From a virus (lineage: Duplodnaviria; Heunggongvirae; Uroviricota; Caudoviricetes), in the IMG/VR virus record IMGVR_UViG_2778261231_000010: a stretch of 6,468 bases of DNA. One strand, 5' to 3'. Positions 2,911 to 3,855 of this stretch are shown in pieces (position 1 is the first letter of the stretch; each line of letters starts with the position of its first letter). The position numbers and the translations under genes are program-made. The notes beneath the pieces were generated by a model. The model ran no database searches. It was not told the DNA's origin and was given only the letters and a program-made list of their open reading frames with translations.

Positions 2911-3251
2911 TAGCTAACCAACGAAGCTAAGGTTGGTAATTAAGGAGTTCTCCACGGGTGAGGTGGAGTGCGTGCGCCGGACACGGGTGAGCATCCGGCA
3001 CTGACAGTTTACTGAAAGGATATTTCCCTGAAAAGTCAGACCATAACGCGAAAGCGCACGGCGAGGTAGCTGGTTCATAGATAGCCTGTCGTTAAATTTT
3101 CGTCGACCGTGCGCTTCCGGTTGTGGCAATCCGCGAAATGGCGCGGCGGTAAGTATGGCGGGGTTATTCCTTCCCCCGTTGAGGACACCGGGTTGTCAGG
3201 TTGACCATACGCTTAAGTGACAACCCCGCTGCAACGCCCTCTGTTATCAAT

Positions 3252-3309
3252 TTTCTGGTGACGTTTGGCGGTATCAGTTTTACTCCGTGACTGCTCTGCC
3301 GCCCTTTTT
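3252..3309 (+). ncRNA. dicF: DicF small regulatory RNA (about 53 nt plus U-tail) with intrinsic terminator
   Basis: tttctggtgacgtttggcggtatcagttttactccgtgactgctctgccgccc (3252-3304) then TTTTT (3305-3309) matches the E. coli DicF sequence as I recall it. Terminal GC-rich pairing (ggcgg 3266-3270 with ccgcc 3299-3303) plus U-run. Confidence 0.88.
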
Positions 3310-3478
3310 AAAGTGAATTTTGTGATGCGGTGAATGCGGCTAAGCGCACGCGGAACAGTTAAAACCAAAAACAGTGTTATGGGTGGATTCTCTGTATCCG
3401 ACGTTAATTGTTAACTGGTTAACGTCACCTGGAGGCACCAGGCACCGCATCACAAAACTCATTGTTGAGGGCGCGATA

Positions 3479-3667
3479 ATGAAAATGTTATTACCAAACG
3501 TTAATACGTCTGAAGGTTGTTTTGAAATTGGTGTCACTATCAGTAATCCTGTATTTACTGAAGAGGCCATTAACAAAAGAAAACACGAACGGGAGTTATT
3601 AAATAAAGTATGCATTGTTTCAATGCTGGCCCGTTTACGTCTGATGCCAAAAGGATGTGCACAATGA
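3479..3667 (+). CDS. dicB: DicB, cell-division inhibitor (62 aa)
   Basis: From ATG 3479 (GAGG 8 nt upstream): MKMLLPNVNTSEGCFEIGVTISNPVFTEEAINKRKHERELLNKVCIVSMLARLRLMPKGCAQ, nearly identical to recalled K-12 DicB. The track ORF from 3374 is an over-extended GTG start. Confidence 0.9.
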   Translation: MKMLLPNVNTSEGCFEIGVTISNPVFTEEAINKRKHERELLNKVCIVSMLARLRLMPKGCAQ

Positions 3668-3855
3668 ATCCAGTATTTGCACTTATTCTGACGGTTTTTC
3701 TTGTTTCCGGAGAGCCAGTTGATATTGCAGTCAGTGTTCACAGAACAATGCAGGAATGTATGGCAGCAGCAACCGAACAGAAAATTCCCGGTAACTGTTA
3801 CCCGGTCGATAAAGTTATTCACCCGGATAATATCGAAATCCCGGCAGGTCTTTAA
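3664..3855 (+). CDS. ydfD: YdfD-like small membrane protein (63 aa); lysis-associated in E. coli
   Basis: ATG 3664-3666 overlaps the dicB stop (ATGA). MNPVFALILTVFLVSGEPVDIAVSVHRTMQECMAAATEQKIPGNCYPVDKVIHPDNIEIPAGL has a hydrophobic N-terminal segment and matches recalled K-12 YdfD. Confidence 0.88.
   Translation: MNPVFALILTVFLVSGEPVDIAVSVHRTMQECMAAATEQKIPGNCYPVDKVIHPDNIEIPAGL

Follow-up and report, generated by a model that had tools for sequence, protein, structure and literature searches.

Introduction

The dicBF operon has long been studied as a model of the control that a prophage exerts on host cell division, and of small RNAs that are cut from mRNAs. RNase III processing is known from this same operon, and from the same interval as is considered here (Faubladier, Cam and Bouche, 1990; Ragunathan et al., 2023). 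According to later papers that cite Faubladier (1990), namely Balasubramanian (2016) and two reviews, DicF has two 3′ ends: that of the 53-nt form derives from the terminator and that of the 72-nt form from RNase III, which acts on the read-through full-length transcript at a "downstream processing site" (PMC5069750; PMC9438474; PMC6582626). The DicF literature also attributes the 5′ end of a 190-nt DicF to a second RNase III cut. The available text of the DicF and RNase III literature that was searched describes no helix, no partner cut before dicB and no folded RNA between two arms, nor does the DicF literature searched describe any structured RNA between dicF and dicB; in two published transcriptome-wide RNase III maps DicF appears as a citation only, and no site is given for this repressed operon.

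Intercistronic RNase III sites are found in phage early operons, as in the R1.1-type sites of T7 and the N-leader and sib sites of lambda. These are simple hairpins, often with internal loops, and host RNase III cuts them, whereby upstream and downstream RNAs are separated and their ends set. The predicted duplex described below is likewise about two turns of dsRNA between the cistrons of a phage early transcript, whereas it closes a 110-nt pseudoknotted domain that belongs to a conserved family of its own.

That family is related to STnc100/PasD, a group of prophage sRNAs. STnc100 proper is a stand-alone sRNA gene of the late region, beside tRNA or stx genes, and mostly has no ORF downstream; the last part of its Rfam model (RF02076), from about position 155 to 206, is a terminator. 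The literature on STnc100/PasD that was searched makes no mention of dicF, dicB, a pseudoknot or RNase III.

Results

The window, i.e., the whole stretch of 6468 nt that was analyzed, is the early-left region of a Qin/Kim-type lambdoid prophage, with a lambdoid early-left operon devoid of an N gene. DicF was recognized at 3253-3304 (Rfam RF00039, 76.7 bits), and the ORF at 3479-3667 is 94-97% identical to database DicB proteins (PF05358). A 501-nt stretch around the repeat discussed here was matched in 4651 of 5426 complete E. coli genomes; the match in K-12 MG1655 is of 95.8%, with dicB and ydfD annotated there and the gene order dicA, ydfA, ydfB, ydfC, [dicF], dicB, ydfD. No tRNA or tmRNA gene was found in the window with ARAGORN. 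DicF was the only Rfam family in the window at the gathering threshold, and lowering the requirement to E ≤ 10 added a credible STnc100; a tsr32 match at E 0.09 was rejected as noise. The features of the interval are collected in Table 1.

Table 1. Features of the dicF-dicB interval, in window coordinates.
Feature	Position	Strand	Remarks
DicF sRNA with terminator hairpin and U-tail (3305-3309)	3252-3309	+	RF00039; directly 5′ of the element
P1 5′ arm	3312-3332	+	Perfect 15-mer 3318-3332; outer extension 3312-3316; A3317 faces C3458
Junction AAU (invariant)	3333-3335	+	Same in all 36 relatives
P2 hairpin, GCGGC/GC-A-CGC	3336-3340 with 3346-3347 and 3349-3351	+	A3348 bulged, loop UAAGC; minimum free energy structure
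Pseudoknot 5′ strand, CAGUUAA	3356-3362	+	Pairs with UUAACUG 3411-3417
Variable central region	3363-3399	+	Length and sequence differ among relatives
P5 hairpin	3400-3407 / 3419-3426	+	Loop holds pseudoknot 3′ strand UUAACUG 3411-3417
P6 hairpin, CCUGG-AGGCA-CCAGG, loop invariant	3428-3442	+	Third pair U-A here, G-C in STnc100 proper
P1 3′ arm	3443-3463	+	Perfect 15-mer 3443-3457; extension 3459-3463
Local hairpin (9 bp, predicted) over the dicB ribosome-binding region	3459-3467 / 3474-3482	+	−8.0 kcal/mol; K-12 −8.7
dicB, cell-division inhibitor, 62 aa	3479-3667	+	PF05358

An earlier note on this DNA had drawn attention to a perfect inverted repeat of 15 bp just upstream of dicB, and string comparison bears it out: 3318-3332 (TTTTGTGATGCGGTG) is the exact reverse complement of 3443-3457. 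In a repeat search the pair reaches 19 nt at 95% (3314-3332 / 3443-3461), with 110 nt between the arms, and the 6468-nt window has no other inverted repeat of 12 nt or more whose loop measures up to 300 nt. The palindromes reported inside the bracket (3400-3407/3419-3426 and CCTGG-AGGCA-CCAGG at 3428-3442) and the tandem AGGCACC repeat are likewise present. On the dicB side the repeat is upstream of the Shine-Dalgarno (SD) sequence as described, and two details needed correction: the SD is GAGG at 3467-3470 and the perfect arm therefore ends 9 nt before it, and the dicB ATG is at 3479, not 3480.

When G.U pairs and one A.C mismatch are allowed, the arms extend to a helix, P1, of 3312-3332 / 3443-3463, which here comprises 20 pairs and the mismatch. 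Folding of 3305-3490, which the earlier note had proposed as a check, gave −65.2 kcal/mol (z = −4.8) and a multi-branched domain that is closed by the arms. In the predicted fold of a 3252-3530 transcript the pairs from 3312-3463 to 3332-3443 have probabilities of 0.91-1.00, save A3317.C3458, and the long dsRNA stem that had been supposed in the operon transcript is thus predicted at about 21 bp, longer than the 15 bp first claimed. The P1 duplex is worth −28.2 kcal/mol here and −27.3 in K-12. The comparison with K-12, also proposed at the outset, revealed C3328U and C3446U, each opposite a G and giving a G.U wobble, together with C3458U, which converts the A.C mismatch to A-U; the K-12 helix is therefore one of 21 contiguous pairs.

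Natural variation of the arms follows the pairing. Across 88 dicB loci all four combinations of C and U at 3328 and 3446 were found, each of which pairs on the + strand RNA, whereas on the opposite strand the same variants would be A.C mismatches. Compensatory double changes were observed in one variant locus at A3325-U3450 (to G-C) and U3314-A3461 (to C-G; L151), in a Klebsiella phage at G3324-C3451 (to A-U) and U3323-A3452 (to C-G), and in a further locus at U3323-A3452 (to G-C; L144). In an alignment of 22 distinct variants 95.7% of the cells of the 21-pair helix are paired and five pairs are changed on both sides, these five not including 3323/3452, a column gapped by MAFFT at which the L144 and Klebsiella changes were paired by hand; sliding the partners by one to three columns lowers pairing to 33-41%. 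Absence of covariation between the arms in related prophages had been set beforehand as what would speak against a role of the repeat; the arms were found to covary, with changes that preserve pairs. One or two P1 mismatches do occur in natural variants (L044, L041, L062, L214), and some prophages (L043, L052, L018, L049, L074) have retained dicB although the element is reduced to its 3′ half, so the stem is not indispensable for keeping dicB. Judged by these substitution patterns, the repeat is an RNA helix of the + strand, and it is real and functional.

DicB homologues were sought for a deeper comparison and turned out to be essentially confined to Escherichia and Shigella, a scan of one genome per species yielding seven loci; because of this the wider diversity was drawn from the RNA motif instead. 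Scanning IMG/VR with the shared 3′ motif CACCNGGAGGCACCNGGCACC returned at least 120 stretches, and almost all the matches listed have GGTGAA 73-111 nt upstream of the motif with flanks that pair. Many elements among the matches listed are bona fide STnc100 (52-148 bits with the Rfam model), often in tandem and often just 3′ of tRNA genes. From the matches listed 36 representative elements on phage contigs were taken as the covariation set. All 36 have the same inner part of P1, GGUG/CACC, and the same AAU junction (in the window the arms read GAUGCGGUG/CACCGCAUC), and the next four pairs covary, with 9-13 of the 36 sequences changed on both sides at each pair; at one of them GC occurs in 21 sequences and AU in 11, at another UA in 17 and CG in 9. 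None of 500 shuffles reached the observed covariation score.

What the arms enclose, over 110 nt, is a conserved RNA domain with a pseudoknot; it is related to STnc100 of Rfam, and the repeat is its closing helix. Its order is P1, AAU, P2, pseudoknot, variable region, P5 and P6; the inner palindromes of the earlier note correspond to P5 (3400-3426) and P6 (3428-3442), and the AGGCACC tandem spans the P6 loop, the 3′ strand of P6 and the beginning of the P1 3′ strand. Alignment with diverged loci brought out two blocks, TGCGGTGAATGCGGCTAAGCGCACGCGGAACAGTTAAAA and CCGGCGTTAATTGTTAACTGGTTAACGTCACCTGGAGGCACCAGGCACCGCA, that are conserved well beyond the dicB context. In the 36 relatives P2 is 99% paired, with wholesale swaps of CG to GC between two subtypes, P6 is 100% paired, its third pair being GC in 28 and UA in 8, and P5 is 69% paired on the MAFFT alignment; RNAalifold, applied to the 36 representatives, finds P1, P2 and P6 de novo. 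The pseudoknot, which is absent from the Rfam STnc100 model, is an observation of the present analysis: in nearly every member the P5 loop is complementary to the junction that follows P2, through many different sequences, and in 34 representatives cognate pairing averages 7.1 bp vs. 4.9 bp for non-cognate strands (p = 6e-16).

The relation to STnc100 was also apparent in a permissive Rfam scan, in which RF02076 aligned with 3316-3456 at 37.8 bits (E 3.7e-7), below the gathering score of 47; in the Rfam alignment the outer 8-bp helix of the model is the inverted repeat. Related copies score below the threshold as well, with 34.4 bits in K-12, 35.5 in the Rac type, 40.4 in the D6-type plasmid and 43.0 in L092. 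The window element shares with STnc100/PasD a closing helix ending in GGUG/CACC and followed by the AAU junction, a 5-bp P2 hairpin with a bulge, the P5 hairpin and a P6 of the form CCNGG-AGGCA-CCNGG that directly abuts the 3′ strand of P1; P2, P5 and P6 stand in the same order and at the same spacing, and all members are borne by phages or prophages. It differs, besides its lower score, in the P2 sequence, swapped to GCGGC...GC-A-CGC, and in the length of P1 (21 bp vs. 6-10 bp). It also lacks the 3′ terminator part: model positions 21-154 of 206 are aligned, and where the remainder would stand the window has the SD and ATG of dicB. By comparison, about half of 73 distinct flanks 3′ of the GGG-type 3′ motif, mostly those of bona fide STnc100, have a hairpin and T-run within 90 nt. 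Finally, whereas STnc100 proper is a gene in its own right, the window element lies inside an operon, 32 nt before the start of a gene. The element is thus a relative of the STnc100/PasD family of prophage sRNAs, though a divergent one that scores below threshold.

At the level of the whole family P1 is 6-10 bp long, and about 8-10 bp in the 36 representatives, of which 19-25 show no pairing at the four columns beyond it. Among the matches listed, a P1 of more than about 12 bp was found only in the dicB and Rac types, and a long P1 only in copies that follow a DicF-type terminator hairpin. Its length is 15-21 bp in copies of the dicB type; Rac-type copies before kilR have 10 bp, a 1-nt bulge and about 12 more bp, and the Klebsiella phage copy has 10 bp, a bulge and 4-6 bp. 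The copies of the DicF-terminator type sit 32-44 nt upstream of the start of a small ORF, namely dicB, kilR, a small membrane protein in D6-type plasmids, and others. The kilR gene, whose leader carries such a copy in E. coli strain L73, is annotated in PHROG as "Kil protein for bacterial septation inhibition." P1 has been lengthened to about two helical turns in the lineage that lies between a DicF-type terminator and a division-inhibitor gene, which is dicB in Qin-type and kilR in Rac-type prophages.

The published processing of DicF can be placed on this helix. Counting 72 nt from the 5′ end of DicF (3252/3253) leads to 3323/3324, with an upper limit of 3327, since the annotated end of the 53-nt form (3304) may omit up to about 4 nt of the U-tail. 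We infer that the 72-nt end, at 3323-3327 with an uncertainty of a few nt, maps to the left arm of P1, at a distance of 6-10 bp from its inner end; in the predicted folds 3323-3327 takes part in no other duplex. RNase III asks for about two turns of duplex, i.e., about 20 bp or more, a size that 3312-3332 / 3443-3463 attains. The suggestion that the stem is an RNase III substrate is strengthened by the covarying arms, by the helix of about 21 bp and by the reported 72-nt DicF, whose end would fall inside the left arm, and the long stem is very probably the RNase III site of the dicBF transcript.

Discussion

The reading that best accounts for these observations, and to which we give a probability of about 0.8, is that a stem of about 21 bp closes a conserved STnc100-like domain and that RNase III cuts both of its strands, separating DicF, the structured RNA and the dicB mRNA. 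The domain would be transcribed within the dicBF operon once RNA polymerase reads through the DicF terminator, and the lengthening of P1 to about two helical turns would provide the size needed by RNase III. A cut in the 5′ arm, at about 3323-3327 if its placement on P1 is right, would make the 3′ end of the 72-nt DicF, and a cut in the 3′ arm, which a stagger of 2 nt would put at about 3450-3454, would create a new 5′ end of the dicB-ydfD mRNA 25-29 nt upstream of the AUG. Between them, the two cuts would free the folded core as a separate RNA of about 122-130 nt, and the outer duplex left behind is predicted to be weak (−3 to −12 kcal/mol). The stem would accordingly be a site of processing between cistrons, through which DicF, the structured RNA and the dicB mRNA become independent of one another, and not a direct mask of the ribosome-binding site.

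The earlier note had offered, besides RNase III, the possibility that the stem is a translational gate, its formation or cleavage deciding whether ribosomes reach the dicB start. As read from the predicted folds this is unlikely, although some features speak for it. The ribosome-binding region has a local hairpin of its own (Table 1), with the SD GAGG at its loop, the AUG (3479-3481) in its stem and its pairing kept in all natural variants. The 5′ arm of this hairpin overlaps the five outermost pairs of P1 (3459-3463), which would compete with it; the AUG is predicted to be unpaired with a probability of 0.55 in the full-length fold, compared with 0.00-0.17 in shorter or processed forms and 0.00-0.01 in the predicted processed leaders; and the distance from an element of this subtype to the start of an ORF downstream is always 32-44 nt. 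A coupling between the hairpin and the outer P1 pairs is thus possible in thermodynamic terms. Against a gate, SD and AUG lie outside the stem, since its perfect arm ends 9 nt short of the SD and the extended helix, at 3463, 3 nt short of it, and the separate hairpin buries the AUG with or without the long stem: it forms in every construct that starts after the DicF terminator (3310-3530 and both processed leaders) and is partly displaced in the full-length fold only. The Rac-type version before kilR has the stem, but a different leader without the hairpin, and the natural recombinants that lack the left arm keep dicB with the right arm alone. What speaks for a gate comes from thermodynamic prediction. 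In the full-length minimum free energy structure the SD also pairs with the 3′ strand of the DicF terminator (3301-3306 with 3467-3472), a pairing that is not conserved in K-12 and was set aside.

That the stem controls read-through into dicB, as a terminator, an attenuator or an antiterminator of the HK022 put type, is highly improbable. Its position, preceded by the DicF terminator and followed by a gene within an N-less early-left operon of lambdoid type, would suit such a function, but the right arm is followed by CUCAUUGUUGAGG rather than by a U-run, and a scan of 3000-3700 gave no + strand terminator, although it also missed that of DicF, whose loop exceeds the limit of the scan. The element lies downstream of the DicF terminator and for this reason cannot act on it. 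As to put, the genome of the reference phage HK022 has no match to the motif, and the best nhmmer hit with the family profile (E 0.29) lies outside the region of the put sites. A search for promoters inside the element yielded one promoter-like match on the minus strand, i.e., the level expected by chance (1 found vs. 0.9 expected).

An action of the repeat as DNA, be it as MITE-like terminal inverted repeats, a recombination site or a protein-binding palindrome, is hardly credible. A unit of about 150 bp does recur in unrelated contexts (before dicB and kilR, in D6/P7-type phage-plasmids and in a Klebsiella phage), and mosaic joints occur inside it. We nonetheless rejected a MITE or DNA palindrome because the variation is strand-specific, a G.U pair of the + strand being an A.C mismatch on the other strand or in DNA, because the arms vary yet stay complementary, as in an RNA helix, whereas ends recognized by a transposase would keep their sequence, and because no direct repeats flank 3312 or 3463; the interior, moreover, has covarying helices and a pseudoknot of its own. 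A chance repeat without function is practically untenable: inverted repeats of 10-11 nt do arise in windows of such size (on average 2.2 10-mers and 0.6 11-mers per shuffled window), but a comparable 15-mer appeared in only 3 of 1000 dinucleotide-preserving shuffles (analytic expectation about 0.002), in line with the improbability claimed for it at the start, and the covariation data, with pairing conserved and compensated across diverged relatives, refute it.

Turning back to the processed stem, its RNase III part taken alone is a confirmation of old knowledge, in substance essentially that of Faubladier (1990) as the later papers report it. What is apparently new is the identity of the stem, a lengthened helix that closes an unannotated relative of STnc100/PasD with a pseudoknot, and the occurrence of this module before both dicB and kilR; we regard this RNA as apparently new because the literature searched on STnc100/PasD and on DicF makes no mention of it. 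A 3′ processing of DicF by RNase III that has long been known, and that is structurally undescribed in the literature searched, can now be tied to a specific 21-bp helix. The dicF-dicB "spacer" is a conserved relative of a pseudoknotted sRNA family, and the same module stands before the unrelated division inhibitor KilR, which makes it a candidate for a third RNA product, or for a leader module that acts in cis, at two toxic prophage loci, the Qin one in K-12 and a Rac-type one in another E. coli strain. The phage RNA family to which it is related is poorly understood, and it also gains members that standard Rfam annotation misses.

How the fold acts is a more speculative matter. We suggest tentatively, and with more doubt than confidence, that the STnc100/PasD superfamily, with the unannotated copies before dicB and kilR counted in, is a compact pseudoknotted fold that acts through its shape and not as an ordinary base-pairing sRNA, and that in the dicBF and Rac early-left operons the long P1 lets RNase III excise a third RNA of about 125 nt, beside DicF and the mRNA of the division inhibitor. 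Shape-based roles of this kind may include a protein or ligand partner, or a module for processing or stability, and phages may deploy the STnc100/PasD fold in several operon positions.

The other RNase III cut of the operon was looked at by length as well. A 9-bp complementarity between 3108-3116 and 3342-3350, considered as a possible long-range partner for this upstream site, is probably due to chance. The 5′ end of the 190-nt DicF would fall at about 3119, a position that belongs to the 3′ arm of another long hairpin (3041-3127, −37.4 kcal/mol), and this local structure explains the upstream site.

A module shared by dicB and kilR/kil

The layout of the dicBF region, in which a DicF-like terminator hairpin is followed by an STnc100-like element and then by a division inhibitor, also occurs upstream of kilR/kil in Rac-type prophages and in Stx phage 75/02 (loci L089, 2451-2908, and L214, 1440-1898, in their own coordinates). 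The terminator hairpin at these two loci scores 38-39 bits, below the DicF threshold. The module is therefore common to two unrelated division-inhibitor genes.

Within the element, the junction following P2 forms a pseudoknot with the P5 loop (Table), and this pairing covaries across the STnc100-like family (L092-L211), with strand pairs such as CUGGUG/CACCGG, CCAGUC/GACUGG, AUCAGCG/UGCUGGU and GAACUGGCA/UGCCAGUUC. It is absent from the Rfam STnc100 consensus structure. Bona fide STnc100 copies were observed in phage contigs (L102, 2265-3380; L093, 8044-8560; L103, 1142-1942) as tandem arrays, with five copies in L102, and directly 3' of tRNA gene clusters. D6/P7-type phage-plasmids carry a copy between tRNA genes (L090).

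Table. Features of the dicBF region (window positions)
Feature	Position	Description
Second long hairpin, 5' of DicF	3041-3127; arms 3041-3066 and 3100-3127	about 25 bp, -37.4 kcal/mol
DicF terminator 3' strand and U-tail with dicB SD	3301-3306 with 3467-3472	GCCCUU with GAGGGC; full-length MFE
Pseudoknot	3356-3362 with 3411-3417	post-P2 junction and P5 loop
ORF in dicB frame	3374-3667	97 aa, GTG start at 3374; spans P5, P6 and right arm
Local hairpin over dicB start	3459-3482	9 bp; start codon buried, SD at loop edge

Leader and start of dicB

The local hairpin over the dicB start shares sequence with the five outermost pairs of the long stem P1. Its natural variants remain paired: L083 has C-G in place of U.G, L047 carries a G to A change, and several loci have A to G. 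In the full-length MFE structure the dicB SD pairs with the DicF terminator, in its 3' strand and U-tail; this pairing is not conserved in K-12, where the SD region reads GAGGAC. As to the 97-aa frame, we argue that its part upstream of dicB is non-coding, since the covariation there is of RNA type and the same sequence precedes kilR in a different frame context; this agrees with the reported internal start of DicB.

The 5' end of the 190-nt DicF is made by RNase III (PMC10448788) and, when placed by length, falls at about 3119, in the 3' arm of the second long hairpin, so that duplexes of RNase III size lie on both sides of DicF.

Mosaic structure of the element

Mosaic joints were observed within the element (L043, L052, L018, L049, L074 and L115, at about locus 1115-1200; also L047). 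In several prophages unrelated sequence is followed by the 3' half of the element alone (from TATCCGRCG, window position about 3394) and dicB, and a single locus has its joint within the right arm. The STnc100-like element seems to be a recombination seam between prophage modules. In three further loci (L021, L086 and L088, at about locus 960-1070) the same downstream block, equivalent to window 3302-3362, follows differing DicF variants whose terminator hairpins are altered in sequence, and the element centre (3363-3395) is shortened or replaced.

An E. coli dicBF region also occurs in a contig whose label is Veillonella parvula MAG (L085), and the element has a 98% match in 'Aeromonas phage AP1' and an 85% match in an 'Actinobacillus phage' (H47, H64); these labels probably reflect contamination or wrong host assignment.
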